Notes under the pieces: model-generated
Told to the model about the DNA's origin: nothing
What the model saw: the letters and a program-made list of their open reading frames with translations, nothing else
Database searches by the model: none
Made by a program: the position numbers and the translations under genes
Part shown: positions 30,372 to 57,042 of the stretch, in pieces
Numbering within the stretch: position 1 is the stretch's first letter
Layout: every line of letters begins with the position of its first letter
Origin: a bacterium
Lineage (GTDB): Bacteria > Oederibacteriota > CAKKQC01
DNA: 64,000 nucleotides
Assembly: GCA_919901855.1 (NCBI GenBank)
Contig: CAKKQC010000007.1
Location: 87,517-151,516, forward strand
Reading direction: 5' to 3'

Positions 30372-31451
30372 TCAGTCGCTCACCGCGCGGAGGACCGCGT
30401 CCGCGGCGGCGCGGTCGGGGACTTCGAGGCCGAGCAGGAACCGGTTGAGCTTCTTCCCGAACTCGCGCTTCATTGCCGCAAGCTTCTCGGGGGGGAACCA
30501 GTCGGAGAGCATGACCATCCGGCCGGCGTCCACGGTCTTGTGGTAGATCGGCCACCACTGCGGATGCCATGCCGGGGTGGCCGCGGCCCCGGGCGTCCAT
30601 TGGAGCATCCGAATTCCGGGCACCGACAGGAGGTGGTCGTGGTGCGGGACCGCGCCGGGGCCGTCCCAGTGGTAGAGGACGAAATCGAGCCGTTCGGTCA
30701 TTCTGCGGAGCACGGGGACCATGAAATCCCCGAACATGGCGGGCGAGATCATGGCGGAGAAGTCGCACTGGAGCTTGGCGCACCGGCCCGGCGCCCATAC
30801 CCAGAAATGGGTCCCGCCGCGCTCGTCCTTGAGGAGGTTGTAGAGGGGGTCGTAGTACGCGAAATACAGGTCCGTGATCTTGTCGAGGCAGTCGTGGACC
30901 CACGCCGGCTGGTCGATCAGGTCAGCGAGAAGGGCCTCGCCGCCACGCATGGCCGCGAGCGTGTCGAGCCCCTCGATGATGTCCGGGTATTGGACGAGGA
31001 ACCTGCCCTTCCCGGCGCGCACGAGCTCGGTCGCGAGCCGGACCGTGAAGTCCCAGTAGAAGTTGTGGGGATCGTACCGGAAGGCCGCGGCCTCGGGACT
31101 GGCCATGCACGGCTCGAACCAGACCGTCCCCGGCATCTCGACGCCCCGGCATCCGAGGTAGAGGGCGAGGCAGTTGGGGCCGAGGTCCGCGGCCGTGACC
31201 GGCATCGACTCGCAGAGGTGGTCGTGCCAGAGGGACTCGCGAAGGCCCGCGTTCACCCGGTACTCGAAGCTCTTGGTCGAGTAGTGCGTGACCCAGCCGT
31301 CCGGGGTGGGCAGGGCGGGAACATCGGCCCACGGCTTCTCACGCCTCGCCTTGAGGAGCAGGGCCGGCCGGCCGAGATCGCCGCCGTTCCACCACGCGGC
31401 CAAACGGTCCCGGGCTGCGTCCGCGTCGGGCCGGTACTCGAGTCCGCTCAT
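30372..31451 (-). CDS. Hypothetical protein (unknown family), translationally coupled to the GH92 gene
   Basis: Lower part of track ORF 30372..34637 from ATG 31451 ([24 protein letters not shown]); its ATG overlaps the GH92 stop (ATGA). Confidence 0.6.
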
Positions 31452-34400: not shown

Positions 34401-34654
34401 CCGGCGCCGCTGATCTGGACGTGCCCGAAGCCGTAGAGGTACTTCCGGCCGTGGATGTAGCCGGAGGGGGCGGCGAGGTCCGTGTGGGGCGAAACCGAGA
34501 CCATGCCCCAGGGCACCTGCGCGCCCGGGTACGTGTTCCCGCCGCCCTCGGTCCCGATGAACGGATCGACGAGGTCGCAGAAGGATTCCGGCCGGGCGGG
34601 GGAACCCGCGCAGAGGGCGAGCAGCAGCGCGGCCCACGCCGGGTTCTTCAGCAT
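31448..34654 (-). CDS. GH92 alpha-mannosidase with C-terminal Ig-like and PA14 domains
   Basis: Track ORF; DLVDPFIGTEGGGNTYPGAQVPWGMV GH92 N-terminal signature; C-terminal ADYFDRMDLTGHS...FSVRWRGRVRAEETGVWTFYTFTDDGVRLWVDGRKIVNEW is PA14. Confidence 0.85.
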   Translation of the reverse strand: MLKNPAWAALLLALCAGSPARPESFCDLVDPFIGTEGGGNTYPGAQVPWGMVSVSPHTDLAAPSGYIHGRKYLYGFGHVQISGAGCSDLGNIRLMATIGPSGFEPDRYRSQFDNERAAPGFYRVDLTTWGTAVEATATERAGFTRFTFPARPHGDANILFDMGSRLSPDPGGGASPYLGAVWIVSTTELAGWSESGGFCGSSSRQRVHFAAVLSRPADSAKVWSDGALLNSGDASGPKVGALMSWATTKSEAIMVKVGISYVSIANARANLAAELPDWDFPGARLRARAAWETELSRVRAEGGTPDQRKIFYTALYHMLIHPNVISDVNGEYPGFRGSGPRKITGRAQYSVFSLWDTYRTVHPFLTLAYPARQLAMVQSMLEMAVDGGWLPKWELAGNETGVMVGDPGTIVVADAALKRLKGLDRDAAWEAVRRNAMATPNPVRPGFDAFLKHGYIPEDDPAAGPVWGSVSTTLEYALADWHAGRLALDLGKAEAEPLLERARCYRNLFDAGTGFLRPRNRDGSWSSPFDPAVNQTGSGGPGYVEGNAWQYAFFVQHDVPGLMALYGDQDAFTEKLQECVDSGYFALWNEPDFAWPYLFDYADGEAWRTQRLVRESLASSFKATPRGLPGNDDTGATSGWIVWSMIGLYPVCPGSGDYEIGSPVFDAVTVALDPAFWPGKALTIRAGRNGPLHPYIQWATLNGRPSNTPHLRFDDLVKGAVFACEMGPQRGAWGGTPRSPVIREQPWETTAVEGTLSRFSIRAGGTGPLEYQWRHNGQNIPGAVRRQLDLPVTPLDAAGSVFSCVVHSPFGGVESRGATLFVEPDRTAPAATSALLQRATAGNQVASVIVGFSEPVEVASAKSAPNYAFYPPLQVRDLKVATDGRSVTLELATAPPANRTCRLDVKNVRDRATRPNVMAPARLMVLPEGDGLRADYFDRMDLTGHSIRRIDPEINFNWGENSPDPAVPPEKFSVRWRGRVRAEETGVWTFYTFTDDGVRLWVDGRKIVNEWHDQRPGEHSGTVFMESGKVYEIWMEFFENTYTAQCDLRWSGPTIPKGIVPRKNLYSK

Positions 34655-34703: not shown

Positions 34704-35150
34704 CTAGAGGCCGCGGACCCGGTCGCGGGAGAGGTGGTATGCCGTGGACTGCTGGATGAGCGTCGCGATGCCGGGATTCCTGAGGAGGACCGCGTCGAAG
34801 GCCTTGCGCGAGAGGCTGTAGAGCTCGCCATCCTCGTCGCCGATGATGGTCGCGGTGCGGGGTGTGTTCCCGAGGAGCGCGACCTCGCCGAAGTATGTCC
34901 GCGGCCCCATGGTGTTGATCCGCTGCTTCATCAGGAACCTGGACTTGAAGACTCCGACCTTGCCGGATGCCACGATGTAGAACCGGTCGCCCACCTCGCC
35001 CTGCCGGATGATGACGTCGCCCTTCCGGTACGTCTGCTTCTCCATGGCGTTCAGGAGCGCGTCGAGTTCCGCCATCTTTAGGTTCTGGAAGAACGAGATC
35101 CTCTGAAGCAGGACCCGGAAGTCCGCGAGTTCGGAGCTGGTCGGTTCCAT
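34704..35150 (-). CDS. Cyclic-nucleotide-binding domain protein (standalone cNMP-binding, no HTH)
   Basis: Track ORF; GDVIIRQGEVGDRFYIVASGKV...YFGEVALLGNTPRTATI. Confidence 0.75.
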   Translation of the reverse strand: MEPTSSELADFRVLLQRISFFQNLKMAELDALLNAMEKQTYRKGDVIIRQGEVGDRFYIVASGKVGVFKSRFLMKQRINTMGPRTYFGEVALLGNTPRTATIIGDEDGELYSLSRKAFDAVLLRNPGIATLIQQSTAYHLSRDRVRGL

Positions 35151-35241
35151 GTCTTCGATATTGTAGGCCCAAATGTCCGCTGGGCCAAGGTGTTATACTA
35201 CCGCCCATGCCGGGCCCAGCGAGAGCGGCGATCCGCGCCCG

Positions 35242-38200
35242 ATGACCAATCAGCCCTCGGGCCGCGGACCCCACCCCCCTCCGGACGACTTCGACGGCAC
35301 CCTGCGGCAGACCGACGATGCCGTCGGGAAGACCCGCGATCTATCCGTTCCCACCGGGGTCGAACAGCAGGCTAACGCGCCGCGCATAGCGGGGTATGTG
35401 CTGACGGCCCTGCTGGGGCAGGGGGCATACGCGCAGGTGTGGCGGGCATGGCAAGTCAGGACGCGGAAGTGGGTGGCCATCAAATGCTTCCTGGCGCGCG
35501 GCGGGGTGAACTGGATGCTCCTCCAGCGGGAGATGGAGCGGCTGATCCGGCTGGACAAGCACCCGCACATCGTGTCCCTGCTGGATGCCGACCTCACTTC
35601 GGACCCAGCCTGGTATGCGCTCGATCTCCTGGAAGCCGGATCGCTGGACCAATACGTGGACCCCACGAAGCTCGTGGGCGTGGACCGGGCGGCGAAGTGG
35701 ATGGAGGAGGTGGCGGAGGCGCTCTCGTACGTGCACTCGAAGGGGATCATTCACTGCGACCTCAAGCCCGCGAACGTCCTGCTCGACGACATGGGGCATG
35801 CGCGGGTGGCGGACTTCGGGCAGTCGAAGGTGCTGAACGAGTCGTCGGGCGCCCTGGGGACGCTCTTCTACATGGCGCCCGAGCAGGCGATGATTTCACA
35901 CGGCGGGGCGGGCGTCCAGCCGGACGTGCGGTGGGACGTGTACGCGCTGGGGGCGAGCATGTACGCGGTGCTTACGGGGAAGGTACCGAACCTGGAAAGC
36001 CTGAAGGCGCGGCTGACGGCGAGTGCCGGGCTGGAGGAGCGTCTGAACGCGTACCGGGAGCTGACGCGGGGAGCCGTGCTCCAGTCGTCGCGGGCGGTGC
36101 GCGGCCCGGTGGTGGACGAGGACCTGTCCGCGATCGTGGGCAAGTGCCTGGCGTACGACCCGAACCGGCGGTACGACTCGATGGGGGCGGTTCTGGCGGA
36201 TCTCAAGGCGCGTCGCGAGTCGCGTCCGGTGACTCCCCTGGCGCATCGCCGCCTCTACCGCGTGCACAAGGCCCTGCGCAGGAACCGCGTTGCCAACGCC
36301 GTCGCCGCCGTTGGGATCGCGTGCTTGGCCGTGGCGTTTGCCGAGATCGCGAGCGAACGGGATGCGGTCAAGAGCCAGATGGGCCTCCTGTACGGCGAGC
36401 GGGGGCGGCGGATGGCGGAGGCGAGTGACGACGCGTCGGCGTTCCTCTTCTTCGCCCGGGCGTACGCCATCTGCGGGACCGATGTGGCCCGCGCCAACGC
36501 GGCCTCCTTCGCGCGCGCCTTCCCCCTGCCCCTCGGCGTCCTCGAAGCCTCCCGGCCCGTGACGGGCGTCTGCTTCAGTCCCGACGGGAAACGGGTCGCC
36601 GTGCTCGAGTTCAACCGGACCGTCCGGCTCTGGGACCCGGCCGCGATGGCCAGGATCGGCGCGCCCTTGGCGCACGCCTACTCCGTCCGCCGGATGGCGT
36701 TCAGCCCGGACGGCAGTCGGCTGGTGACGGCCGGCGCCGACGGGGTGGCGCGCGTCTGGGACGCGGAGACGGGTGCGGAACTGGGGGTGATCTTGCGGCA
36801 CGAGGACGAGGTCACGGAGGCCGTCTTCGGCCCGGCGGGATCGTGGATCATGACGTCCGGGCTGGACGGGGTCGTATCCCGCTGGGACGCGAAGACCGGC
36901 AAGCGGCTGGGCACGGTCCGCACCGGATCGGCCGTGCTCGCGCTGGCGCTGAGTCCGGACAGGGCGACGTTCGCGACTGGGGGTGCGGATCGGACCGCGC
37001 GGCTGTGGCGGGCCGGGGGCATGACGCCGGCGGGGCCCCCCCTGCGGCATCGCGCCGCAGTGGCGGGAGTGGCTTTCAGCCCGGATGGCGCGAACCTGCT
37101 GGCCTGGAGCGAGGACCAGATGGCCCGGCTCTGGTCGGCCGGCGGGGTGTCCAGGCGCGAGCAGGGAGGCGTGTCCCGAATCTTCGACCGGCCGTTCAGT
37201 CCCGACGGACGGCGGCTCATCCTGGCCATGGACGGCCGGACGCTCCAGCTCATGGACATGGCAACGTGGCGGGCCCTGCCGGGCGTGATGACCCACTCCG
37301 ATTGCGTGAACGCCGCCGCCTTCAGTCCGGACGGCGCACTAATCGCCACGGCCTCGTCGGACGGAACGGTGAAGTTGTGGGACGGGCGGACCGCCGAGCC
37401 CACCGGCCGGAGCCTCCAGCACGACGGCGACGTCTACGCGGTCGCGTTCAGCGGAGACGGGAGACTGATCGTGAGCGGGGGAGCGGACCTCACCGCCCGC
37501 CTCTGGGGCAGGCCCGAAGCGGGGTCGCACCGGACGGAGCTCGCATTGCGGACCGCGCTGACCGCGGCGGCGCTCTCTCCGGACGGGTCGCGCGTGGCGA
37601 CGGGGGAGACCGGCAAGGTGATCCGGGTCCTGGATGCCCGCACGGGAACGGTACTGTGGACCCGACCGGTGAAGGAGATTCCCTCGCGGCTGGCGCTCAG
37701 CGGGGACGGCCGGTGGGTCGGCGCCGTCGTCGGCGGGACCTTCGTGGTCTTCGATGCGGCCTCGTCGGGTCCCCCGAAGGCCATGGGACGCGTAGACGAG
37801 GCGGTTCCGCCGTGCCTCAGCCGGGACGGCGGCCGGGCCATGACCGTGGACGGCGGCCGGATCCGGCTTTGGAACGTCGCGACGGGCGCGGCGGCCGGCG
37901 ACTTCGGGGGTGCGGACCCGGTGACCGCGGCGGAGCTGGACGCGGACGGCGTCACCGTCGCCTACGGGACGAGGGGCGGCGAGGCGGGCGTCTGGAACAG
38001 CCGGGGGGGGAAGAGGCAGGAACGGGCGACGCCCGCGGCGGGCGCCGCCGCCGGGGAGGACCGCCGGGCTGACAACCCCGTCGGCGCGGTGGCCCTCAGT
38101 CCGGACGGGCTGACCCTGGTATCGGCCGGTGCCGACCAGGCTGTCCGGGTCCGGGACGCCGCGTCCGGGGAAGAGACCGGGGTCGTCGTCCGGCCCGGCG

Positions 38201-38586
38201 GGACCGTCGTGCGCCTCGCCTTCTCGCCGGACGGCCGGGCGTTCGTGACCGCCTGCGACGACGGCTGGATCAGGATCTGGCACACCGGCACCGGCGAACT
38301 GCTGGGGAAGCCGCTGCGGGCCGACGGCGCGGTCTCGGCCCTGGTCTGCGCCAGTCTGGGCGACGGCGTCGCGGTCGTCGCAGTCGACATGGAAGGAAGG
38401 ACGCGGGCGTGGGACGCCGGGTGGCTGGCCGCCGCCGAGCCGCCCGCGGAGATCACGCGCAACGCGAACCTGGCGACCTTCCGCCGTGTCGATGAACGGG
38501 GCAGTATTGTTCCGCTGGGGCCGGGCGAGTTGGAGGCACTCAAACAGGGGAGGCCGTCTTCGGCGGTCTCGAGGAGGCACAAGTGA
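35242..38586 (+). CDS. Hanks-type Ser/Thr protein kinase with single TM segment and C-terminal WD40 beta-propeller repeats (paralog 1)
   Basis: Track ORF 35173..38586 trimmed to ATG 35242 (MTNQPSGRGPHPPPDDFDG) by alignment with paralog 2. Motifs GQGAYAQVW...VAIK, HCDLKPANVLL, DFG and APE; TM NAVAAVGIACLAVAFAEIA; repeated ...FSPDG..L.T.G.DG..RLWD... Confidence 0.8.
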   Translation: MTNQPSGRGPHPPPDDFDGTLRQTDDAVGKTRDLSVPTGVEQQANAPRIAGYVLTALLGQGAYAQVWRAWQVRTRKWVAIKCFLARGGVNWMLLQREMERLIRLDKHPHIVSLLDADLTSDPAWYALDLLEAGSLDQYVDPTKLVGVDRAAKWMEEVAEALSYVHSKGIIHCDLKPANVLLDDMGHARVADFGQSKVLNESSGALGTLFYMAPEQAMISHGGAGVQPDVRWDVYALGASMYAVLTGKVPNLESLKARLTASAGLEERLNAYRELTRGAVLQSSRAVRGPVVDEDLSAIVGKCLAYDPNRRYDSMGAVLADLKARRESRPVTPLAHRRLYRVHKALRRNRVANAVAAVGIACLAVAFAEIASERDAVKSQMGLLYGERGRRMAEASDDASAFLFFARAYAICGTDVARANAASFARAFPLPLGVLEASRPVTGVCFSPDGKRVAVLEFNRTVRLWDPAAMARIGAPLAHAYSVRRMAFSPDGSRLVTAGADGVARVWDAETGAELGVILRHEDEVTEAVFGPAGSWIMTSGLDGVVSRWDAKTGKRLGTVRTGSAVLALALSPDRATFATGGADRTARLWRAGGMTPAGPPLRHRAAVAGVAFSPDGANLLAWSEDQMARLWSAGGVSRREQGGVSRIFDRPFSPDGRRLILAMDGRTLQLMDMATWRALPGVMTHSDCVNAAAFSPDGALIATASSDGTVKLWDGRTAEPTGRSLQHDGDVYAVAFSGDGRLIVSGGADLTARLWGRPEAGSHRTELALRTALTAAALSPDGSRVATGETGKVIRVLDARTGTVLWTRPVKEIPSRLALSGDGRWVGAVVGGTFVVFDAASSGPPKAMGRVDEAVPPCLSRDGGRAMTVDGGRIRLWNVATGAAAGDFGGADPVTAAELDADGVTVAYGTRGGEAGVWNSRGGKRQERATPAAGAAAGEDRRADNPVGAVALSPDGLTLVSAGADQAVRVRDAASGEETGVVVRPGGTVVRLAFSPDGRAFVTACDDGWIRIWHTGTGELLGKPLRADGAVSALVCASLGDGVAVVAVDMEGRTRAWDAGWLAAAEPPAEITRNANLATFRRVDERGSIVPLGPGELEALKQGRPSSAVSRRHK
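35260..36260. repeat. ~1 kb direct repeat (kinase-domain coding region), copy 1; partner at 41407..42400 (~88-90% nt identity)
   Basis: Long identical runs, e.g. gacttcgacggcaccctgcggcagaccgacga and catcaaatgcttcctggcgcg / catcaagtgcttcctggcgcg. Confidence 0.7.
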
Positions 38587-41381
38587 AGGGACTCAAGAGT
38601 TTTCTGGAGGATCTGGGGCGGGGCGCGGGCACTGCGGCGGCCTGGGGACTGTGGGCGGAGGCGAGCCGGGCGCTCTTCGTGCTTGTCGGGTTGGGACTGG
38701 TCGTCGCCACGGTGGACGTGTTCCTGTCCATCTTTTGGAGGTGCGTGCCGTGGGAGTATTTCCAACTGTGGTATAGGATCGCGGCTGTGACGGTGGATCC
38801 GACCCCGGAGCTCCTCGGGTTCGTCGTGATCGTGATTGCGGGAGCCTTCGCGGCCTCGCTCCTGTTCGGCGCGATCTCGCTGGTGATGGCCCGGGGCCGC
38901 GCGGAGCCGGCCGCAGGCAGAGATGCGCCTGCGGCGGGAGCCGACAGGATCGTGGCCGCTGCCCGGCCGCTCTACACCGCGCTGGGAGCGGCAGGGGCGG
39001 GGTACGTTTTCCTTTGGCAGGTCTGGGAGGATCTCAACCGGGCCAGTTGGAACTGGGAGGGGAGTTTCATCTATGTCGAGCGGTCGGCGTTTCCCCTGAG
39101 CCTGGTGCAGGCGGACCTCGTCATCCTGCTGGGGCTGGCCGTGATCCTGATCGGGCTCGCCTGGACCCTGCCGGCGCGAGTCGACCGGGTCTTTGCCCGC
39201 GAGTCCCGGGCCGGGGAATCCGGATTGTGGGTGACGGGACTCCTCCATCTGCTCCTGGCGGTTTCGCTCGTTCCGGCCGCACTGCTCGTCTGGTCCGTGG
39301 GTTTCTCCGCCAGCACGGTCCTGGGCTTCCTGGACGGACACTGGCTCAGGATGCTCCTGGTCGTGGGTTTGCTCGTGGTCCTGTTCGTCCGGATGACCGG
39401 ATGGCGGCGCAACTTCCTCTCGTTGTTTACGGCCCCCGCTGGGTCGAGACCGGCCGGCGCGACGCTGAAGACGATGCTCGTGCACATGGTGATCCTCACG
39501 GCGGCCGCGGTCGGGTGCTGGGTGCCGGTGCGCGTGTACTGGTCCCTGAAGCTCCACGGGCTCGAGGGATCCGTCCGGCAGAAGGGGCATCCCGTGAGCC
39601 TGGCGGATCTGCCCAGACCGGTGGAAGGCCGGGCGCTCACCCGGGACGAGCTGGTCAAGGTCGTGGCCGAGTTCGATCGCGAAGCCAGTACGCCGGCCGA
39701 ACAGATCAGGATGCTCCGTGAGCGTGCCAAGGGGGAGGCGCTGGACTCCTGGAGACTCAAGCTCGCCGGGGGTGCGCCGGGCGGGGCTGCCGTACCTCCG
39801 GAGGCCACTCCGGGATTCGACGACCGCGGGTGGGAGAACGTGAAGGTGGGGGACGGTCCACAGCCCCAATTGGAGGGTCGCTTCGGATGGGCGTGGTTCC
39901 GCACGACGGTCAACCTCACCCGCAAGGACCTGGACGGCGGGCTGACGAGGCTGACCTTCTGGGGTGTCGACGAGAACGCGGTCGTCTACGTGAACGGGTC
40001 GTTGGTGGGCGAGCACCGGAAGTGGGTTGAGCCGTTCCAACTGGACGGACGGAAGGTATTCCGTCCCGGTGCCAACGTGATTGCCGTGTGTGTCGAGAAC
40101 ACGCAGGGCCCGGGGGGCATCTGGAGGCCCGTCCAGGTCACGCGGGCGATCGACATGAAGGCTTGGGCTGTGGCCGGCAAGACGAAGAGTTACTGGGGGA
40201 CCGTCGAGGACATGTACCTGGCAAAGGTTGTGCTTCGGCGTCGGGACGGCGAAGCCCTGCGCCATGTCCGAGCCGCACTCGGCACGGCCGCCGGCCAGAG
40301 CCTGCAGCGCCTGGCCGGGGTTTCCGACGGGCGCGCATCTTACCGGGCATGGGACTACCCGAAGCTGGCGAAGGCGCCGTTCGACTACCGGATGGCGATC
40401 GATGCCACGTGGTACGGATACGGCACTCGCCGCACCCTCTCGGCGTTTGACCGGGCGATGGTCCTGAAGGCCGCCGTGGACGCCTCCGACGGCCGGATCG
40501 GGGCCGCGTGGGAGGACTTGCGGACGGTGGTCCGACTGGGCCGCCTGTTGGGCCAGGATCCGTTGTTCGTTTCGAAGTACGTGGAAAGGGACGCCATGCG
40601 GGCCGCGGCGGAAGGGGCCGTCACGATCCTCCTCAACAGCCCCGCGGCGGAGCTTCCCCGGGACTTGGCGCGCGATTTCGAGAACGCGGCGGCGACGGAC
40701 TTCTTCCCGGAGGCGGTCCGGGCATCCATCGCGTGGACGCTGGACGCGCATCGGTGGGAGCGCCGTGGGTGGGTACGGCCGAATCTTCCCGACAGCTACG
40801 GGGGAACAGGCAGGAGACCATCCGGGATCGCCCGGCTGGACCTGAGTCTCCGGTACCTGACGGGGGCGTGGGACGCCTCCGTGTGGTCGGCGCTCGGCGT
40901 CCTGCGCGAGTTCTCGTCCCCGGTGCCGGGCGGGGAGCTCGAGGCCAAGCGGACCGCGTTCCTGGCGCGGTCGAGGCGGGGCGGGTACTTCTGGCAGGGC
41001 GATTATGATCTCGGGAACGGGCTGTTCAAGGGTTACGTCTACATCTGCAAGCACGAATGGGTGGACAGGATGTGGTTCCAGTTGCCGCTCGTTTGCTCCG
41101 GTCTCAACCGGTACCGCGCCCAGAACGGCCGGTTTCCTGCCGCCCTCAAGGAGTTGAGTCCGCGGTTCGTCCCGGCCGTCTGTCTCAAGGACCCGTTCAC
41201 GAACGGGTGGCTGAGCTACGAGGCGAAAGGGAGCAGCTACCAGATCCTGAGCGACGGACCGGACGGGAACGGCTTCGTCTACTGGGACAGCAAGAACCAC
41301 ACCTGGCGCACAAAGGTCCTGGTCCAGTATCCGTTGCCTCCGGCGGTCAAGGGCGACATCAGGATCATGAGGGAGCAGTAG
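38583..41381 (+). CDS. Polytopic membrane protein (~8 TM) with GH2-N/galactose-binding-like jelly-roll domain and pseudopilin (GspG)-like C-terminal domain
   Basis: Track ORF, GTG overlapping the kinase stop (GTGA); GWENVKVGDGPQPQ...LTFWGVDENAVVYVNGSLVGEH...GANVIAVCVEN; C-terminus CLKDPFTNGWLSYEAKGSSYQILSDGPDGNGFVYWD. Confidence 0.65.
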   Translation: MKGLKSFLEDLGRGAGTAAAWGLWAEASRALFVLVGLGLVVATVDVFLSIFWRCVPWEYFQLWYRIAAVTVDPTPELLGFVVIVIAGAFAASLLFGAISLVMARGRAEPAAGRDAPAAGADRIVAAARPLYTALGAAGAGYVFLWQVWEDLNRASWNWEGSFIYVERSAFPLSLVQADLVILLGLAVILIGLAWTLPARVDRVFARESRAGESGLWVTGLLHLLLAVSLVPAALLVWSVGFSASTVLGFLDGHWLRMLLVVGLLVVLFVRMTGWRRNFLSLFTAPAGSRPAGATLKTMLVHMVILTAAAVGCWVPVRVYWSLKLHGLEGSVRQKGHPVSLADLPRPVEGRALTRDELVKVVAEFDREASTPAEQIRMLRERAKGEALDSWRLKLAGGAPGGAAVPPEATPGFDDRGWENVKVGDGPQPQLEGRFGWAWFRTTVNLTRKDLDGGLTRLTFWGVDENAVVYVNGSLVGEHRKWVEPFQLDGRKVFRPGANVIAVCVENTQGPGGIWRPVQVTRAIDMKAWAVAGKTKSYWGTVEDMYLAKVVLRRRDGEALRHVRAALGTAAGQSLQRLAGVSDGRASYRAWDYPKLAKAPFDYRMAIDATWYGYGTRRTLSAFDRAMVLKAAVDASDGRIGAAWEDLRTVVRLGRLLGQDPLFVSKYVERDAMRAAAEGAVTILLNSPAAELPRDLARDFENAAATDFFPEAVRASIAWTLDAHRWERRGWVRPNLPDSYGGTGRRPSGIARLDLSLRYLTGAWDASVWSALGVLREFSSPVPGGELEAKRTAFLARSRRGGYFWQGDYDLGNGLFKGYVYICKHEWVDRMWFQLPLVCSGLNRYRAQNGRFPAALKELSPRFVPAVCLKDPFTNGWLSYEAKGSSYQILSDGPDGNGFVYWDSKNHTWRTKVLVQYPLPPAVKGDIRIMREQ

Positions 41382-41388
41382 CGGAAGG

Positions 41389-44300
41389 ATGACCGAACCC
41401 GCGACACCGCGCACGCCGCCGCCGGACGACTTCGACGGCACCCTGCGGCAGACCGACGAGGCCGTCGGGAAGACCCGGGATCTCTCCGTGCCCACCGGGG
41501 TCGAACAGCAGGCGAACGCCCCACGGATAGCCGGGTATGTCTTGACCGCCCTGCTGGGGCAGGGCGCGTACGCGCAGGTGTGGAAGGCGTGGCAGGTGCG
41601 GACGCGGAAGTGGGTGGCCATCAAGTGCTTCCTGGCGCGGGGCGGCGTGAACTGGATGCTCCTCCAGCGGGAGATGGAGCGATTGATCCGGCTGGACAAG
41701 CACCCGCACATCGTCTCCCTGCTCGATGCGGACCTGACGGCCGATCCTGCCTGGTATGCGCTCGACCTGCTGGAGGCGGGGTCGCTGGAGCAGTACGTGG
41801 ACCCGGCGAAGCTGGTGGGCGTGGACTCGGCGGCGAAGTGGATGGAGGAGATCGCGGAAGCGCTGTCGTATGTGCACACGAAGGGGATCATCCACTGCGA
41901 CCTGAAGCCGGCGAACGTGTTGTTGGACGACATGGGGCACGCGCGGGTGGCGGACTTCGGGCAGTCGAAGGTCCTGAACGAGTCGTCGGGCGCGCTGGGC
42001 ACGCTGTTCTACATGGCTCCGGAGCAGGCCATGATCTCGCAGGGCGGGGCGGGAATCCAGCCGGACGTGCGGTGGGACGTGTACGCGCTGGGCGCGAGCG
42101 CGTATGCGGTGCTGACGGGGAAGGTGCCGAACCTCGAGAGCCTGAAGGACCGGCTCACGACCAGCCCGGGGCTCGAGGACCGGCTGAGCGCGTACCGGGA
42201 GCTGACGCGGGGGGCCGTGCTCCCGTCGGCGCGGGAGGTGCGTGGCCTGGTGGTGGACGAGGACCTGTCCGCGATCGTGGGCAAGTGCCTTGCCTACGAC
42301 CCGGATGCGCGATACGACTCGATGGGAGCGGTGCTCGCGGATCTCAAGGCGCGGCGGGAGTCGCGACCGGTGACTCCGTTGGCTGCGAGTCGACGCTACC
42401 GAACGGGGAAGTTCCTGCGGCGCAACGCGATCTTGGTTGCCGTTTGCGGCATCGCGCTGGTTGCGCTCGCGGGAGCATTCAGCCAGGTCGTGCGGAAGCA
42501 GAGGCTCGCCACCCGCCAGTTGGCGGACTCCTACCTTCTGCGGGCTGAGCAGATGGCCGCGCAGGATGATGTGCCGGCCGCCGCCATCTACTCCGCGGAG
42601 GCCAACCGCATCCTGCCTTCCGCGGTGGCGCGCATGAACGGAATGGCATTCCTGAGCGAGATGGACATGCCTGTGTTCGAGGCGCGGGACGAGCACGAAC
42701 TGAAGCTGGCCGATTTCTGCGCGGATGGCGCGCAGATCGTGACCCTCTGCGACGAGGGGGAAATCAGGAGGTGGGATGCGGAGACCGGCAAGCCGGTCAG
42801 AGGCACCGTGAAGCTGGCCGGGGCCGGGCCGGGGATAGCCTTCGCCGAGATCAGCCAGGACCGGCGGACACTGCTCACCTGCGGTGATGGGGGGAAGGCC
42901 TGGGGGGGCGTCACGGTTCGGGTGTGGGATGTCGCAACCGGGAAGGCGATGGGTGAGCCCCTGAAGATGGGCCCGTTGATGACGATCGGGGGCTGGAATC
43001 TCGGCGCCATCTTCAGTCCGGACGGCGGACGCGTGCTGACTTTCGGTAACAGCGCGGTAGCCAGGCTGTGGGATGGGCGGAACCTGCGGGCGGTTGGCAA
43101 GGGCTTCGTGTGCGGCAGCACGGTGAGGGCCGCGGCGTTCAGTCCGGACGGGATGAGCGTGGCCACCGGAGGACAGGATGGGGTGCAACTCTGGAACATC
43201 AAGTCCGGCAAGGCATTGAACCTGCGGCATGGGGCGGAGGTCAGCCAGATATCCTTCAGCCGGGACGGCCGGTTGCTGGTGGTGGCGGGGGGGGCAGGCG
43301 TGCGCGTGTGGGATACCCGCACTGGTAAACAGGTCGGGCTGGAGTTCCGGCACGACAAGGATGTCAAGTTCGCGGCGCTCAGCCCGGATGGGTCGGGCCT
43401 GCTGACGGGGGGCGATGACCAGACCGGCCGGATGTGGGACGTCGGGACCGGCGAGCTCGTTCGCGGCGACCTGCGGCATCATGGGATGCTGCTCGGGGGG
43501 GAGTTCAGTCAGTACGGGACCCGTGTATTGACGGGTGCCGCCGACAACACTGCCCGGGTCTGGGGTCCCGAGCCGGGCAATCCACCCCTTCTGGTTCTAC
43601 ATCACGAGCGCCGACTCCTGGACGCCGTCTTCGGCCCGGACGGCACGAAGATCCTCACCCGGATGGAAGGCGGATCGGTGCGCATATGGGATGTGGCGCA
43701 GGCCGACCGGAAGGTGAGGACCATCCGTCCGAGCCCCTGGCTGGCGGATGTCCGGTTCAACCCGCGCCGGAACCTTATGGCCGTCGTGGACGGCTACGGA
43801 GCCATCACGCTGTTCCGGCGTGCGCGGCGCGGCTGGACCTACGTAGCGAAACACCCGTCGCTGGGCGGCATCCAGAAGGTATTCCTGGACTCGGAAGGCA
43901 AACGGGTGGTCGGCGTCGGCTGGGACAACTCCCTCGCGATCAGGGACGCCGGGAACGGGGAGATCGTCGCCCAGGTGCCTCCGGGGCCCGGAGAATGCCT
44001 GCTCGCGATGCCGAGTCCGGACGGGTTGCGGATCGTGACGGTGAGCCGTGATGCCGGGAGCGGCGATTTCGTATTCCGGGCTTTCAGAATGGAGGACGGG
44101 AAGCCCGACGGCAAACCGTTCACGGCCAAGGGCGGCGCCCCGTGGCTCGCCCTCAGCCCTGATTGCCGCAATGTCGTGCTGAAATCCGGCGACGGGAAGA
44201 CAACAAGGGTCTTCGATTTGGCGACCGGTTCTCAGGTGGGCTCTGACATGCGGCACGATTCCATTGTGCGCTACGTGCACTACGGCCAGGACGGTGAAGG

Positions 44301-46428
44301 GATTCTGGTGATCACCGAGGACGGGAAGGTCCGGCTCTGGGATCCGCGGACCGGACGGGCGGAAGGCCGGGCTTTCTCGTGCGGGCAGATCCTTGCGCTC
44401 ATCAGAGCCGAGGATGGCTGGCGAGCCCTCGAGGGCCGGCCGGGGTCCTTGCGCATCTGGGACGCAAAGCGGGGTGTGGCCGTGGGCCGGGATCTCTGGA
44501 TGCAGGGCGGGCTAACTTCGGTCTCCGCGTATCCCGGAGGAGGTAGGTTGTTGACCGGATGCAACGATGGTTCCGTCCAGCTCTGGGACCTGCGGACGGG
44601 GAGTCCGATCGGTTCCCCGGTCAGGTTTGCGAACGGCACGCGAAGCGTGGATCTGGGGAAGGACGGCACGGCTGCCGCGTTCAACTGGGTCGAGATGCGG
44701 GTCTGGAGCATCCACGATACCGACACGGCGGTGGAGCCGGATGACCTGGTCCTGCGCGCGCAGGTGATGACCCGCTGCCGGGTGGATGAGGCCGGCCGAA
44801 CGGAAGTCCTGACTCCCGCGGCGTGGCAGGCACTCTCGGCGCGTCTTTCGGCCGGGAAGCCGGCCGGGCCGGAGGGAAGCGGGACGGCGGACTGGTCGGC
44901 CGTAACGAGCCGCGCCCTTTCGGTCGGTGCCGGGCAGGTGGACCTCGCCGGAGCCTTGCGCGAACTGGGCCGGCTGATGTCCAGCGGCGCGCCGATTCTG
45001 GACGCCCTGGACGCCGTCGGCAAGAAATGCTCCGACCGGGCGCTGGCGGAAGCATTCGGCGAAGTCCGCAAGTCGCTCAGGGAGGGGATGTCGCTCGCCG
45101 GGCCCATGCGCGCCACCGGCGCTTTCCCTCCGCTCGTGATCCACCTGGTGTCCGCGGGATGCGAAATAGGCAAGCTGGACGCGATGCTGATCAAGGCGGC
45201 GGACCTGCTTCGGTCGCCGGTGGCGGGGAGCAACAGCGTTAAGGCCGAAACGGCGGCGGCCATGCGAGCGTTTGAGGCCATGACCGCCGCGGATTTGCGG
45301 ACGGGGCAATCGCTGGCGATTATAGGCGAATGGACAGCGAATACCGAGTTGCGCAAGGTCCTGTCGGGCATGGCGGACGAGCTCAACAGGAAAGTCAGCC
45401 TTCCCGCGGTTCTTGCCGCTCATGTGAACGTCTTCGGCGCCACCTGGCTCGGCAGAATCCCGCGCGGTAGCGAAGGAGACTGGAATGCGGTACTGAAAGC
45501 GCTTGCCGACTCCCTCGAGGAGGAGTTGATGAGGAGCGGAGTGGCGGGGAGCAACGCAGGAGGCTCCGTTGACGTGATGGAATGGGCGCTCAGCCGGGGC
45601 GGTGGGGGAGGGACAGCCGGCACTGGGCCGTTGCCGTTAGGCGATCTGGGGTTGGATCGGTCTGAGCAGGGCGCGATCGACCGCGCTTTGTCCGCCGGGC
45701 GGGGTCTCATCCTGTTCACGGGACCTGACGGGTCCGGCAAGACGACCACGGCCATTGCAGCCTTGGCCCGCGTCCGCGGCAAGAAGATCCACCTGGTGGG
45801 GGAGCATGTCGAGGAGTTGGAGCGTGCGGGAGCTTCCTTCCTTTCGACCGCCGGGGGTGGATTGGGATCCGCGCTCGAGTTGCTCGCGAAGAAGCCCGCA
45901 GGCGTGGTCCTCGTGGGCGACCTCGGGGATGCCTCCGAAATCCGGCTCGTCGGCAAGCTCGTTGCCGCAGGGCACCTGGTTATAGCCGTGGCCAGGGGCG
46001 ACGACTGCGCGGAGGTGGTTGCGCGGTTTGCCGGGCTCGTGGACCCGGCCACGGGGAAGCCGGTCGATGCCAAGGCGTTTTCCGACGCGCTCTCGCTGGT
46101 CGTTTCCCAGCGCCTGCTCCGCCGGGTATGCCGCGCCTGCGCGATACCCGCGGGGGACGGGACTGGCGAGTTCGCGGGCGTCTCCCTCATGAAGGGCGCG
46201 GGATGCCCGGCGTGCGGCAATTCGGGGTTCAAGGGCCGGGTCGCATCCTTCGAGCTTCTCCCGGCCACGGCGGCGGTCCGCGCCGCGGTGGCGAAGCGGG
46301 CCCGGGTGGAAGTCATCCGGAGTCTTGCGCTCAAGGAGGGCCTGATCCCGATGCGTCAGGCGGCGGTCGCGCAAGTTAAGGCCGGGCTGACGACGCCAGA
46401 TGAGTTCAGGAAGGGAGGGTTCCGCTAG
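41389..46428 (+). CDS. Ser/Thr kinase, TM, WD40 propeller, GspF-like cytoplasmic domain and GspE/PilB-like ATPase domain fusion (paralog 2, 1679 aa)
   Basis: Track ORF. N-terminal 330 aa ~90% identical to paralog 1; TM AILVAVCGIALVALAGAF; WD40 repeats; GMSLAGPMRATGAFPPLVIHLVSAGCEIGKLDAMLIKAADLL (T2SSF-like); LILFTGPDGSGKTTT (Walker A); VVLVGDLGD where GspE has VGEIRD; CRACAIP...GCPACGNSGFKGRVASFELL tetracysteine motif. Confidence 0.8.
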   Translation: MTEPATPRTPPPDDFDGTLRQTDEAVGKTRDLSVPTGVEQQANAPRIAGYVLTALLGQGAYAQVWKAWQVRTRKWVAIKCFLARGGVNWMLLQREMERLIRLDKHPHIVSLLDADLTADPAWYALDLLEAGSLEQYVDPAKLVGVDSAAKWMEEIAEALSYVHTKGIIHCDLKPANVLLDDMGHARVADFGQSKVLNESSGALGTLFYMAPEQAMISQGGAGIQPDVRWDVYALGASAYAVLTGKVPNLESLKDRLTTSPGLEDRLSAYRELTRGAVLPSAREVRGLVVDEDLSAIVGKCLAYDPDARYDSMGAVLADLKARRESRPVTPLAASRRYRTGKFLRRNAILVAVCGIALVALAGAFSQVVRKQRLATRQLADSYLLRAEQMAAQDDVPAAAIYSAEANRILPSAVARMNGMAFLSEMDMPVFEARDEHELKLADFCADGAQIVTLCDEGEIRRWDAETGKPVRGTVKLAGAGPGIAFAEISQDRRTLLTCGDGGKAWGGVTVRVWDVATGKAMGEPLKMGPLMTIGGWNLGAIFSPDGGRVLTFGNSAVARLWDGRNLRAVGKGFVCGSTVRAAAFSPDGMSVATGGQDGVQLWNIKSGKALNLRHGAEVSQISFSRDGRLLVVAGGAGVRVWDTRTGKQVGLEFRHDKDVKFAALSPDGSGLLTGGDDQTGRMWDVGTGELVRGDLRHHGMLLGGEFSQYGTRVLTGAADNTARVWGPEPGNPPLLVLHHERRLLDAVFGPDGTKILTRMEGGSVRIWDVAQADRKVRTIRPSPWLADVRFNPRRNLMAVVDGYGAITLFRRARRGWTYVAKHPSLGGIQKVFLDSEGKRVVGVGWDNSLAIRDAGNGEIVAQVPPGPGECLLAMPSPDGLRIVTVSRDAGSGDFVFRAFRMEDGKPDGKPFTAKGGAPWLALSPDCRNVVLKSGDGKTTRVFDLATGSQVGSDMRHDSIVRYVHYGQDGEGILVITEDGKVRLWDPRTGRAEGRAFSCGQILALIRAEDGWRALEGRPGSLRIWDAKRGVAVGRDLWMQGGLTSVSAYPGGGRLLTGCNDGSVQLWDLRTGSPIGSPVRFANGTRSVDLGKDGTAAAFNWVEMRVWSIHDTDTAVEPDDLVLRAQVMTRCRVDEAGRTEVLTPAAWQALSARLSAGKPAGPEGSGTADWSAVTSRALSVGAGQVDLAGALRELGRLMSSGAPILDALDAVGKKCSDRALAEAFGEVRKSLREGMSLAGPMRATGAFPPLVIHLVSAGCEIGKLDAMLIKAADLLRSPVAGSNSVKAETAAAMRAFEAMTAADLRTGQSLAIIGEWTANTELRKVLSGMADELNRKVSLPAVLAAHVNVFGATWLGRIPRGSEGDWNAVLKALADSLEEELMRSGVAGSNAGGSVDVMEWALSRGGGGGTAGTGPLPLGDLGLDRSEQGAIDRALSAGRGLILFTGPDGSGKTTTAIAALARVRGKKIHLVGEHVEELERAGASFLSTAGGGLGSALELLAKKPAGVVLVGDLGDASEIRLVGKLVAAGHLVIAVARGDDCAEVVARFAGLVDPATGKPVDAKAFSDALSLVVSQRLLRRVCRACAIPAGDGTGEFAGVSLMKGAGCPACGNSGFKGRVASFELLPATAAVRAAVAKRARVEVIRSLALKEGLIPMRQAAVAQVKAGLTTPDEFRKGGFR
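41407..42400. repeat. Direct repeat copy 2 of the kinase-domain coding region
   Basis: See copy 1. Confidence 0.7.
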
Positions 46429-46483: not shown

Positions 46484-48172
46484 ATGAGCTGGTTCATCGA
46501 GGCGCGGCCGAAGGGCGGAACGCCTGTAAGGCTCGAGATCATGCCCGGGAAGCCGGTAGTGATCGGCCGGTCCGACCAGGCGGACATGAAGGTTGCGGGC
46601 GACGGGTTCCTGAGCAGGCGGCATGTGGAGGTCAAGCTAGACGGGAAGCGGCTCGCGGTTCGCCGGCTCGAAGGCGCGTCGAACCCGGTCCTCTTCCGTG
46701 GCCAGGAGTCGGCGGAGTTCGCGATGGGGACCAACGACTGGTTCGCGATCGGGGAGACCCGGTTCGTCCTGCTCGGCGGCGAGGGAATGGTGCCGATCAA
46801 GACCGAAACGGACGACGCCCCCGCGGTCCAGCACACGATGAGCGAGGCCGACCTCTACGCGATGGGGGGGCGGGCGGACCGCATGCGGCTCCTGGACCTC
46901 GTCGAGCTGCCCGAGATGCTGAGGTCGATGAAGCGTGAGGAGTTCTTCGTGCACCTCGCCGGGATGATCCGGCTGGCCACCGACGCCCGATGGGCGGCGG
47001 TGGCGAACGAGAACGGCGAGGTGATCGCCCGGGACTGCATCGAGGACGCGCCGGCGGAATGGCGGATGAGCCGGTCCGTGATCAAGGCGGCCTTGCGCGA
47101 CGCGCCGCGGCCGACGCTGTGCGTCTGGGGCGGGACCGCCGGGTTCGAGGCGACGGTGCAGGAGGGGACCGACTGGGCGATCTGCGCCGCGATGAAGGTT
47201 CCGGGCGGCGCCCCGCTCGTGCTCTATGCCGCGGGCGAGGGGGGGGAGGAAGCCGCGCGCCGGCACGAGGAGAACTCGCGGTTCATTGGCCTCGTCGCGG
47301 ACATGGTGGGGCGCAGCCTCTCGGTCCACCGGCTGGAGTCGTGGCAGGGGCGCCTCGAGCACTACTTCTCCGGGCCCGTCATCTCCAAGATCCTGGAGTC
47401 CAGCGATCCCAAGGGGCTGGAGCCCCGGATCTCGCCGGCGACGATCATGTTCTTCGACATCCGCGGGTTCTCGAAGCGCACGGAGGGGCAGAACGAGCGC
47501 ATCCTGTCCTACCTGGGGGAGCTCCGCCGGATCATGACCGCGATGACCGAGGAGATCTTCAACGAGGGCGGCAACGTGCTCCAGTATCTGGGCGACGGCA
47601 TCATGGCGTGCTGGAACGTCCCGATCGAGGTGCCGAACCACGTGGACGGGGCGGTCCGCGCCGCGATGCGGATGGCCACGCGCCTTGGGGAAATGACCGA
47701 CGGCTGGAAGTGCGGGATCGGGCTGCACACGGGCGACGTCGTGGCGGGGTCGCTGGGGTCGGACCTCATGTTCTCGTACGGGGTCATGGGCGCGGTCGTG
47801 AACCAGTCGTCCCGGGTGGAGGGGATCACGAAGCACGTCGAGACCCCGATCCTGGTGACGAAGGAGATCGCGGAAAAGCTCTCGCCGGCGGTGGCGTTGA
47901 CCAGGCGGATCGGCCGGTTCCAGCCTGCGGGCATGCACGTCGCGCTCGATCTCTACGAGCCCCTGCCGCCCGACGCCGAGCGCGAGCCGCTCGCCGTCTA
48001 CGCGAAGGGCCTCGAGATCTTCGAGCGGGGCGACTGGGAGGAAGCCTACAAGGTCCTCGACCAGCTCGGCCACGAGGACCGGCCGGCGCGGTTCATCAAG
48101 GCGCTGGCCGAGAGCTACCGGCGCCATCCCCCCAAGGGCTGGCAGGGCATCATCGAGTTGAGCGAGAAGTAG
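46484..48172 (+). CDS. FHA-domain-containing class III adenylate/guanylate cyclase
   Basis: Track ORF; N-terminal FHA (PVVIGRSDQADMKVAGDGFLSRRHVEVK...NPVLFRG); C-terminal cyclase homology domain (MFFDIRGFSKRTEG...YLGDGIMACWN...GLHTGDVVAGSLGS). Confidence 0.8.
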   Translation: MSWFIEARPKGGTPVRLEIMPGKPVVIGRSDQADMKVAGDGFLSRRHVEVKLDGKRLAVRRLEGASNPVLFRGQESAEFAMGTNDWFAIGETRFVLLGGEGMVPIKTETDDAPAVQHTMSEADLYAMGGRADRMRLLDLVELPEMLRSMKREEFFVHLAGMIRLATDARWAAVANENGEVIARDCIEDAPAEWRMSRSVIKAALRDAPRPTLCVWGGTAGFEATVQEGTDWAICAAMKVPGGAPLVLYAAGEGGEEAARRHEENSRFIGLVADMVGRSLSVHRLESWQGRLEHYFSGPVISKILESSDPKGLEPRISPATIMFFDIRGFSKRTEGQNERILSYLGELRRIMTAMTEEIFNEGGNVLQYLGDGIMACWNVPIEVPNHVDGAVRAAMRMATRLGEMTDGWKCGIGLHTGDVVAGSLGSDLMFSYGVMGAVVNQSSRVEGITKHVETPILVTKEIAEKLSPAVALTRRIGRFQPAGMHVALDLYEPLPPDAEREPLAVYAKGLEIFERGDWEEAYKVLDQLGHEDRPARFIKALAESYRRHPPKGWQGIIELSEK

Positions 48173-56566: not shown

Positions 56567-57010
56567 GTGACCCATGACGACTGCGCTGGAGGAATCCTGG
56601 ACCCCGCCGGCCTGAGCATAGATCCGGAATCGCCGGAGGGGGTCAACCGGCGTGCGTCACCGCGTCGCCCGGTCCGGATCGCGGGCACGGCGTGGATCGT
56701 CGCGCGCGTGGTCGCCCCGCCCTTCAAGGTCGAGGCAACCGATGTCAGCGCCGGCGGGATGATGCTCCACGGCACCTCGCGCGCCTTCCCCGAGCTGGAG
56801 CCCGGCGACGAGTTCATGATCGGGTTCCCGGTCGAGCACTCCAAGGAGGACGTCAGCGTGCGGGGCAGGCTGGCGTGGAAGCGGATGGGGTTGATGACCC
56901 TGCTCGGGGACTGGTCCTTCGGCATCCGGTTCCACGACACGCCCGAGTCCGTGATCCTCAAGCTCCTCGACGTGGCCGCGCGCCAGCGGGAGAGTCCCCA
57001 AAAGCCCTGA
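56567..57010 (+). CDS. PilZ-domain (c-di-GMP-binding) protein
   Basis: Track ORF, GTG start after ggagg; RRASPRRPVRI (RxxxR) and DVSAGGMMLHG (D.S.GG). Confidence 0.6.
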   Translation: MTHDDCAGGILDPAGLSIDPESPEGVNRRASPRRPVRIAGTAWIVARVVAPPFKVEATDVSAGGMMLHGTSRAFPELEPGDEFMIGFPVEHSKEDVSVRGRLAWKRMGLMTLLGDWSFGIRFHDTPESVILKLLDVAARQRESPQKP

Positions 57011-57042
57011 CGGGGCCGCCGTCTGCGGCGGAGGCGCCCGAA

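Follow-up and report, generated by a model that had tools for sequence, protein, structure and literature searches.

A leaderless GspG-like module at the C-terminus of a polytopic membrane protein encoded between two receptor-kinase genes

A pseudopilin-like C-terminus on a membrane protein encoded between two kinase genes raises the question of whether the protein belongs to a secretion filament, to carbohydrate metabolism or to signalling. The protein lies in a 64,000-nucleotide stretch of bacterial DNA (the window). The original prediction described it as a polytopic membrane protein that combines a GH2-like sugar-binding jelly roll with a GspG-like C-terminal domain, with a multi-TM region in place of a prepilin leader. 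It also described a GTGA coupling to the upstream kinase gene and a 7-bp distance to the downstream one. The features of the target protein and its neighbours are collected in Table 1.

Table 1. Coordinates of the target gene, its parts and the adjacent genes within the window.
Feature	Position	Strand	Basis or description
Small cyclic-nucleotide-binding protein	34704..35150	-	divergent from kinase 1
Kinase 1	35173..38586	+	Pkinase, one TM (aa 371-395), WD40 array; stop overlaps target start
GGAGG Shine-Dalgarno-like site	38573..38577	+	5 nt upstream of GTG, inside kinase 1 end (sequence reading)
Target, whole ORF	38583..41381	+	932 aa, GTG start, TAG stop ending at 41381
Polytopic membrane region, aa 22-321	38646..39545	+	hydropathy and charge distribution
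Family motif K-G-H-P-V-S-L-A-D-L, aa 335-344	39585..39614	+	just past last membrane helix
Galactose-binding-domain-like jelly roll, aa ~395-540	39765..40202	+	Pfam Glyco_hydro_2_N core aa 428-508
Alpha-helical domain, aa 541-808	40203..41006	+	alignments A2 and A3; AF2 all helices
GspG-like module, aa 809-916	41007..41330	+	hhalign vs GspG profile; AF2 pLDDT >90 for aa 826-885
Kinase 2	41389..46428	+	Pkinase, one TM (aa 341-369), WD40 array, GspF-like aa 1184-1289, GspE/PilB-like ATPase aa 1416-1674
Adenylate/guanylate cyclase, weak FHA-fold-like N-terminus	46484..48172	+	next gene, same strand

The target is a real gene: it has a third-position GC content of 0.86, and an ortholog with 60% identity lies among matching neighbours. 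The GC contents of the three codon positions, 0.67/0.50/0.86, are typical of real genes in the window, and a spurious ORF was rejected on conservation and GC3. The ortholog, P0001, aligns across the full length with the start conserved. It was the only relative returned for the full protein by a word-indexed search, whose reach is limited by its word filter; the same search returned no protein for residues 521–932 and 5 proteins for the family profile. The relative is represented in JGI samples 3300031952 and 3300031746. No relative was found in a scan of 185,579 species genomes, and a metagenome scan returned the already known contig and nothing further.

Both gene junctions are as predicted. 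The target GTG overlaps the TGA of kinase 1 by 4 nt, and 7 nt lie between the target TAG and the ATG of kinase 2. The ortholog keeps the identical three-gene order and the 4-nt overlap. A kinase 1 ortholog occupies the same position in loci L001 and L002, and a kinase 2 ortholog does so in L001.

The membrane region also agrees with the original prediction. Residues 22–321 contain six strong hydrophobic segments on the Kyte-Doolittle scale, and a weaker one at residues 123–146, giving six or seven helices. In a seven-helix model with the N-terminus inside, built from hydropathy and the positive-inside rule alone, the Arg/Lys-rich loops at residues 103–122, 195–213 and 272–295 all fall in the cytoplasm and residues 321–932 fall outside. 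The target would then be an inner-membrane protein with about seven helices and a periplasmic ectodomain of about 610 residues. Its membrane region was matched solely by P0001 and by a fragment, P0003.

The jelly roll in the ectodomain is of the GH2_N type and non-catalytic. Its match to Pfam Glyco_hydro_2_N (PF02837) scores 34.2 bits (E 3.1e-8), where the cut-off is 28 bits, and its profile matches GH2 beta-galactosidase chains in the PDB (best E 1.4e-8). NCBIfam matches to the target fall on the jelly roll only, far under their cut-offs. “Sugar binding” derives from the Pfam name only, and the ligand is putative. Pfam detected no GH2 Ig-like domain (PF00703), TIM barrel (PF02836) or other catalytic domain in the target at E<=1, and a GH2 enzyme was rejected on that account. 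The target might still be a carbohydrate-active enzyme anchored in the membrane, or a protein that captures glycans in connection with GH92 and GH95 genes, and be unrelated to the kinases. Both of these genes are present in the window, and the same jelly roll is known in GH2 and GH35 enzymes. However, it is also known in non-catalytic tandem arrays, and it underlies about 125 of the best 150 of 1,621 representative hits, in varied architectures. The glycosidase genes are on the opposite strand or distant, whereas the target is coupled to the kinases. With the TIM barrel missing as well, we judge a carbohydrate role very improbable.

The C-terminal segment quoted in the original prediction is identical to residues 867–902. 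The module around it consists of a helix (residues 809–848), a loop with GRFP and DPF, two strands (878–882 and 885–889), an SDGPDG loop, found in the longer form S-D-G-P-D-G-N-G, and three weaker strands. A Pfam search with the target as a single sequence gave no T2SSG match at E<=10. PDB searches with the target C-terminus or with the family profile (HMM-to-sequence) did not recover GspG. The HHpred-type check proposed with the original prediction was made with hhalign, in which a profile built on the C-terminal modules of 25 relatives was compared with one built on 8 genuine GspG sequences. The family module matched GspG with 95% probability and P of about 3e-8 (ranges 94.9–95.2% and 2.7e-8 to 4.2e-8). 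The alignment covers 89–90 columns at 17–18% identity; it starts at the end of the N-terminal helix of GspG and runs on through the beta-sheet. When the profile was made from the target and its ortholog only, the probability was 44% (P 2.4e-4). The reversed profile gave 1.6%, the helical part 0.3% and column shuffles at most 2.3%. The family module scored 68% against a single GspG sequence, and at most 1.8% against GspH, GspI, GspJ, GspK, GspM and GspC. Within the family, T2SSG is also the commonest weak Pfam match; of 23 members, 7 show it, the lowest E being 0.0018.

Structure prediction was restricted to residues 536–932, because MAFFT, given residues 318–932, wrongly aligned the C-termini of the family with the jelly roll; the full-length target, modelled from two sequences, reached a pLDDT of 33 only. 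In the AF2 model of the shorter stretch (pLDDT 77, pTM 0.82), the helical domain is accompanied by a long helix and a small beta-sheet, with a beta-hairpin after the long helix at pLDDT >90. The order of its secondary-structure elements agrees with that of GspG. Could the resemblance be a convergent short motif (GRYP...DPF..Y....S.G.DG) instead of homology? The low identity favours convergence, as does the lack of significance of the Pfam and PDB searches for the target itself. However, the alignment extends over 90 columns, helix included, and the 95% contrasts with at most 2.3% for the reversed and shuffled controls and the other Gsp proteins. The agreement in predicted secondary-structure order also speaks against it, and we hold convergence to be highly improbable. 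These comparisons support the view that the module, though leaderless, is remotely homologous to the periplasmic part of GspG, the major pseudopilin of type II secretion; the match is significant only at the level of the family profile.

The prepilin leader and the hydrophobic pilin helix are both absent. The prepilin motif G-[FM]-x-x-x-E is absent from all 932 residues, and the target has no N_methyl match in Pfam at E<=1. The hhalign match begins at column 31–32 of the GspG profile, beyond the hydrophobic segment, and in the AF2 model a soluble helical domain, with no hydrophobic pilin helix, precedes the module. Attachment to a multi-TM region in place of a leader was thus correctly predicted. 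A true pseudopilin was rejected for want of the leader. Since it has no cleavage motif and no hydrophobic helix and is tethered to a large protein, the module could not be extracted or polymerised like a pseudopilin.

The target might nevertheless function within type II secretion or type IV filament machinery. Its module would then join or cap a pseudopilus, for which the GspE/GspF-like domains of kinase 2 would supply the power. The homology to GspG and the presence of those domains in the adjoining gene favour such a role. However, the module without leader or hydrophobic helix is the C-terminal end of a 932-residue, 7-TM protein, and the GspE-like domain of kinase 2 has its Walker B Glu and its His box replaced. 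No secretin, prepilin peptidase or minor pseudopilin occurs among the window genes scanned, and family members elsewhere have no T2SS neighbours. We regard a filament role as extremely improbable.

By sequence comparison, the helical domain and the GspG-like module together constitute a recurrent family for which neither Pfam nor NCBIfam holds a model. Its layout is a variable polytopic anchor, a last TM, a G-x-PVSL-x-D/E motif, the alpha-helical domain and the GspG-like module. Among the best 150 of 1,621 representative hits, 23 match the target at residues ~600–919 with 21–28% identity, and phmmer gives E values of 1e-13 to 1e-25 against these 23 members. Most members carry G-x-P-V-[ST]-L-x-[DE]-[LF] behind the last TM. 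The target can be aligned with the family over about 300 residues of helical domain and C-terminal module, and alignments A2 and A3 show invariant W and P columns, the Trp being residue 643 of the target. Comparison of the helical domain with PDB folds gave no significant match. In 12 of the 25 family modules two Cys residues co-occur, which suggests a disulfide and is consistent with an extracytoplasmic location. The jelly roll is absent from other members; its insertion, early in the ectodomain, is limited to the target and its one ortholog.

The gene neighbourhoods of the family vary. P0142 is accompanied by a GAF-ANTAR gene and unknowns, and the distant relative P0152 lies directly behind an ECF sigma factor gene and a gene for a 140-residue protein. 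An Elusimicrobia MAG locus, the sole find of a scan seeded with two sequences, has a TPR kinase about 2.8 kb off. Kinase genes do not flank the other family members, and the link to kinases is therefore specific to the lineage of the target. This variation, together with the sigma factor beside P0152, would suit a generic periplasmic scaffold or regulator, for example an anti-sigma-like one, which shares a transcript with the kinases but does not act on them. However, the target is coupled to both kinases by 4 nt and 7 nt, an arrangement kept in the only ortholog, and the scanned window genes include no sigma factor. A bystander scaffold therefore seems unlikely to us.

A different role is suggested by the position of the target between two receptor kinases. 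We propose, with a probability of roughly 55%, that the target serves the two flanking kinases as a sensor or adaptor subunit in the periplasm and is not a pilus subunit. The kinases are paralogs. Where Planctomycetota kinases combine one TM with WD40 arrays, the WD40 domains are predicted to be periplasmic (PMC11032199). A location in the compartment of the target ectodomain is likewise predicted for the WD40 arrays of both single-pass Ser/Thr kinases. Binding of a ligand, perhaps a glycan, would fall to the jelly roll, the GspG-like module would offer a fixed surface contacting a protein or ligand, and the target would modulate both kinases. The signal might pass on to the FHA-like cyclase encoded downstream and to the cyclic-nucleotide-binding protein.

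A bolder proposal concerns kinase 2. With its single predicted TM, its WD40, F-like and E-like parts would share a compartment with the GspG-like module. The GspG-like head, the module resembling the cytoplasmic domain of GspF and the degenerate GspE-like ATPase might then be three pieces of a type IV filament machine co-opted together into a receptor-kinase complex, in which the WD40, F-like and E-like parts could dock on the GspG-like module and form a signalling switch in place of a secretion motor. We consider this co-option quite unlikely.

Pseudopilin and pilin heads are filament building blocks. To our knowledge, a prepilin leader and a hydrophobic helix accompany them in every case, and no pseudopilin-like or GspG-like domain in a non-pilin protein was found in the literature searched. 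A GspG head that has neither feature and is fixed to the ends of polytopic membrane proteins points to reuse of the fold outside filaments, where it is probably a periplasmic interaction module. At the present locus such a head lies between two receptor kinases of the Planctomycetota type, one of which has GspF- and GspE-derived domains. If these parts interact, they would exemplify the recycling of secretion-machine components for signalling, and would give a testable role to many unannotated relatives.

Comparison with known systems places the target among several of them. With GspG/PulG (Pfam T2SSG, PF08334) the module shares the long helix in its C-terminal half, the beta-hairpin, the S-x-G-x-D-G loop and the loop motifs Y-x-x-x-x-G-x-Y-P and D-P-W/F-x-x-x-Y. 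A calcium site in the C-terminal loop is a further mark of GspG; the target has the loop S-D-G-P-D-G-N-G. Unlike GspG/PulG, it has no prepilin leader, cleavage/methylation site or hydrophobic N-terminal helix. It ends a 7-TM protein, behind a helical domain of about 270 residues, it scores under the Pfam threshold, and its gene is outside any gsp operon. The jelly roll matches that of GH2/GH35 beta-galactosidases above the Pfam cut-off and resembles solved GH2 enzymes, but it stands alone, embedded in the ectodomain of a membrane protein.

The other members of the family (P0020, P0023, P0031, P0142, P0151 and others) have the last TM with the motif, the helical domain with its Trp and the module as in the target. 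The target and P0001 differ from them by the jelly roll insert of about 140 residues, by a unique 7-TM N-terminal region, by the lack of the Cys pair found in about half of the members, and by the two flanking kinases. Both flanking genes share the exact architecture of the Planctomycetota membrane Ser/Thr kinases with periplasmic WD40/TPR arrays (PMC11032199), a paper in which the word “secretion” does not occur. In contrast to those kinases, the target has no kinase domain, and kinase 2 has additional GspF/GspE-like domains.

The open reading frame for the 932-aa membrane protein is genuine at its coordinates in the ORF listing of the window, and its GC content at the three codon positions (0.67/0.50/0.86) matches the pattern of the other well-supported genes of the window, which has about 70% GC. 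Its start codon overlaps the TGA of kinase 1 as GTGA, GGAGG lies 5 nt upstream of the GTG, and 7 nt separate its TAG stop from the start of kinase 2; both junctions, as originally predicted, are read directly from the window sequence. The sole ortholog, P0001 (941 aa, on two JGI metagenome contigs), displays 60% identity across the full length. An upstream WD40 gene overlaps P0001 by 4 nt and the next gene begins 10 nt downstream, and these neighbours are orthologous to kinase 1 and kinase 2, at 80% and 77% identity respectively. The close coupling and the retained order of the three genes argue that the protein is produced along with both kinases and acts together with them.

Genes and domains of the window, with coordinates and strand
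Feature	Coordinates	Strand	Description
Surface protein	14650-20328	+	1892 aa; DUF7507/CARDB/Big_1/FlgD_ig domains
GH92	31448-34654	-	with PA14 domain
cNMP-binding protein	34704-35150	-	small; transcribed divergently
Kinase 1	35173-38586	+
Kinase 1, kinase domain	35275-36290
Membrane protein	38583-41381	+	932 aa; GTG start
Kinase 2	41389-46428	+
Kinase 2, kinase domain	41416-42430
Cyclase	46484-48172	+	adenylate/guanylate cyclase; weak FHA-fold-like N-terminus
Reverse-transcriptase ORF	56692-58695	+	667 aa; RVT_1, E 1.2e-12
GH95	59393-61678	+	fucosidase type

Hydropathy identifies six strong hydrophobic helices (aa ~28-50, 76-102, 172-194, 214-240, 253-271 and 296-320) and a weaker one (aa 123-146) in the N-terminal third, which confirms the polytopic membrane protein of the original prediction. 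By the positive-inside rule, a topology of seven helices with the N-terminus inside is probable: the Arg/Lys-rich loops at aa 103-122, 195-213 and 272-295 are then all cytoplasmic, and the loops with few positive charges, together with aa 321-932, fall outside. Among the 150 representative matches listed, the membrane region is matched only by P0001 and a 100-aa fragment, P0003.

The GH2-like jelly roll proposed earlier also holds. Residues 428-508 score 34.2 bits against Pfam Glyco_hydro_2_N (E 3.1e-8, cut-off 28), and a profile of the protein and P0001 picks out, in GH2 beta-galactosidases of solved structure, the N-terminal domain (E 1.4e-8). NCBIfam matches are confined to this stretch, with scores far under their cut-offs. 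Of the best 150 matches of an exhaustive HMMER search against 1.84 billion representatives, the majority cover aa ~395-540 alone. They include GH2 and GH35 enzymes and also non-catalytic proteins that carry as many as four tandem copies along with TPR repeats, a distribution which indicates that the jelly roll is a mobile domain of galactose-binding type; sugar binding is a putative property taken from the family name only. The jelly roll could point to a carbohydrate-processing role, which is very unlikely: Pfam finds no other GH2 domain in the protein at E<=1, and a GH2 enzyme was rejected for this reason. Separately, the GH92, GH95 and surface protein genes of the window fit a glycan-degrading organism.

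Another 23 of the best 150 matches cover aa ~600-919 without the jelly roll, and the C-terminal 330 residues define an unannotated family, which has no covering model in Pfam or NCBIfam. Members are 300-860 aa and share a single plan, in which about 2 to 12 membrane helices are followed by the motif W-(H)-G-R...L-K...G-x-P-V-S-L-A-D/E-F...P-D-x-x-Y/N-A (KGHPVSLADL, aa 335-344, in the window protein), a helical domain and a C-terminal module with the consensus W..LAL..SAL..YR...GRYP..L..L.P.......L.DPF....F.Y.....G.GF.L.S.GP.G...D. The distance from the motif to the invariant Trp (aa 643) is about 300 aa in the window protein, whereas it is about 125 in other members. The extra spacing is the jelly roll; thus the protein is a family member with an inserted jelly roll, an insertion common to it and P0001 only. 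One member comes from an Elusimicrobia groundwater MAG, and a more distant relative, P0152, from a Planctomycetota MAG. In P0134 (839 aa), about 230 residues follow the module, which is not C-terminal in every member.

The C-terminus had been likened to GspG, and the likeness stood for the family profile but not for single sequences. Residues 784-932 and 521-932 gave nothing in Pfam at E<=10, and neither the protein sequence nor the family HMM found GspG in the PDB. When the 23 members were scanned one by one, T2SSG was the commonest weak Pfam match (seven members, the window protein not among them; best E 0.0018, all under the cut-off), and a separate scan gave E 0.0075 for member P0020. A profile of the modules of 25 members (aa 805-932 of the window protein) was then compared by hhalign with a profile of eight GspG sequences (E. 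coli K-12, two E. coli plasmid copies including pO157, Legionella, Tateyamaria, Ralstonia, Aliiroseovarius and Neorhizobium). The two matched at 94.9% probability (P 4.2e-8, score 50, 89 columns), and at 95.2% (P 2.7e-8) on a fresh alignment. The matched stretch begins just past the hydrophobic segment of the GspG helix, reaches the G-x-D-G loop and pairs LNRYRAQNGRFP with LDMYKLDNHHYP and KDPFTNGWLSYEAK--GSSYQILSDGPDG with ADPWGNDYVLVNPGEHGAYDLLSAGPDG.

Omission of the window protein left 95.2%, and a single E. coli GspG gave 68%. The controls stayed low: 1.6% for the reversed GspG profile, 0.3% for the family helical domain, at most 2.3% (score at most 18.8) for eight column shuffles, and at most 1.8% for GspH, I, J, K, M and C. 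At the family level the resemblance lies far above chance, and it is specific to the major pseudopilin. The window protein and P0001 alone gave 43.8% (P 2.4e-4), so that the likeness of this protein on its own is suggestive and not conclusive.

A GspG head is expected to run helix, loop, hairpin, loop, strands. The AF2 model of aa 536-932 (25 sequences, mean pLDDT 77, pTM 0.82) is consistent with this order: after the helices up to aa ~800 come one of 40 residues (aa 809-848), two short loop helices, strands at aa 878-882 and 885-889, an SDGPDG loop and three short strands of lower confidence, with pLDDT >90 across aa 826-885. Foldseek with the whole model returned helical-repeat matches only, none significant (best E 0.28). 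Convergence of the module on GspG is quite unlikely given the profile match and its controls.

The GspG likeness might also suggest a true pseudopilin, which is highly improbable. A pattern scan of all 932 residues found no G-[FM]-x-x-x-E prepilin motif, whose absence had been noted by eye, no hydrophobic helix precedes the module, and the module ends a 7-TM protein. In 12 of the 25 family modules a Cys pair, spaced 16-17 residues, flanks the loop that follows the second strand (P0023, P0031, P0034, P0038 and P0044 among the carriers); both Cys are present or both missing, and the window protein and P0001 are without them. This co-occurrence suggests a disulfide, and therefore an extracytoplasmic module, and the arrangement is reminiscent of the type IV pilin disulfide loop.

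Both kinases combine a Pkinase domain with a long WD40 array and a single predicted membrane helix. For Planctomycetota kinases of the same architecture, the prediction is a kinase in the cytoplasm and a WD40 array in the periplasm (PMC11032199). The cNMP-binding protein and the cyclase, which is the gene next after kinase 2 on its strand, bracket the kinase cassette, suggesting a relay from kinase to FHA-cyclase to cNMP. The kinase domains of the two kinases are 85% identical (373 aa) and the proteins diverge past the membrane helix; at the DNA level a repeat is 91% identical over 300 nt. The two paralogs of the metagenome relative have residues in common that neither window copy carries, which suggests gene conversion across the intervening gene.

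The C-terminal end of kinase 2 resembles the second cytoplasmic domain of GspF (aa 1184-1289) and the C-terminal ATPase of GspE/PilB (aa 1416-1674). Compared with E. coli GspE, the Walker A and the Zn-binding CxxC...CxxC are retained, whereas Walker B reads VGDLGD in place of VGEIRD, with loss of the Glu, and VARGD stands where GspE has the His box TLHTN; these changes point to a weakened or inactive ATPase. Since a single membrane helix is detectable, the F/E-like domains would be periplasmic, with the WD40 array and the GspG-like module, an odd placement for an ATPase. The G-, F- and E-derived parts may have been recruited together, adjacency being the sole support. The P0001 contig stops before this region of its kinase 2 ortholog.

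Elsewhere the family has other neighbours: one member, P0142, lies beside a GAF-ANTAR gene and unknowns, and the Elusimicrobia member has a TPR kinase about 2.8 kb away. P0152, with a TM, helical domain and GspG-like C-terminus, is encoded directly downstream of an ECF sigma factor and a 140-aa gene (L005 5455-8176, GCA_026692765.1), which hints at an anti-sigma-type partnership in the wider superfamily. What these settings have in common is signalling, not secretion. That the family function is unrelated to the two kinases, as such varied neighbours might suggest, is rather unlikely in view of the coupled, conserved kinase cassette.

Overall, we favor a periplasmic sensor or adaptor, at a probability of roughly 0.55; of this reading, architecture and homology are the firmer part and the function the less secure. 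Ligand binding, perhaps of a glycan, would fall to the jelly roll, and the helical domain and fixed GspG-like head would be contact surfaces. The signal could reach the kinases by contacts with their periplasmic WD40 arrays or by the membrane helices.

A literature search found no account of a leaderless GspG head ending polytopic membrane proteins, nor of the family. The parts are of kinds already known, namely a pseudopilin head, a GH2-type jelly roll and WD40 kinases.
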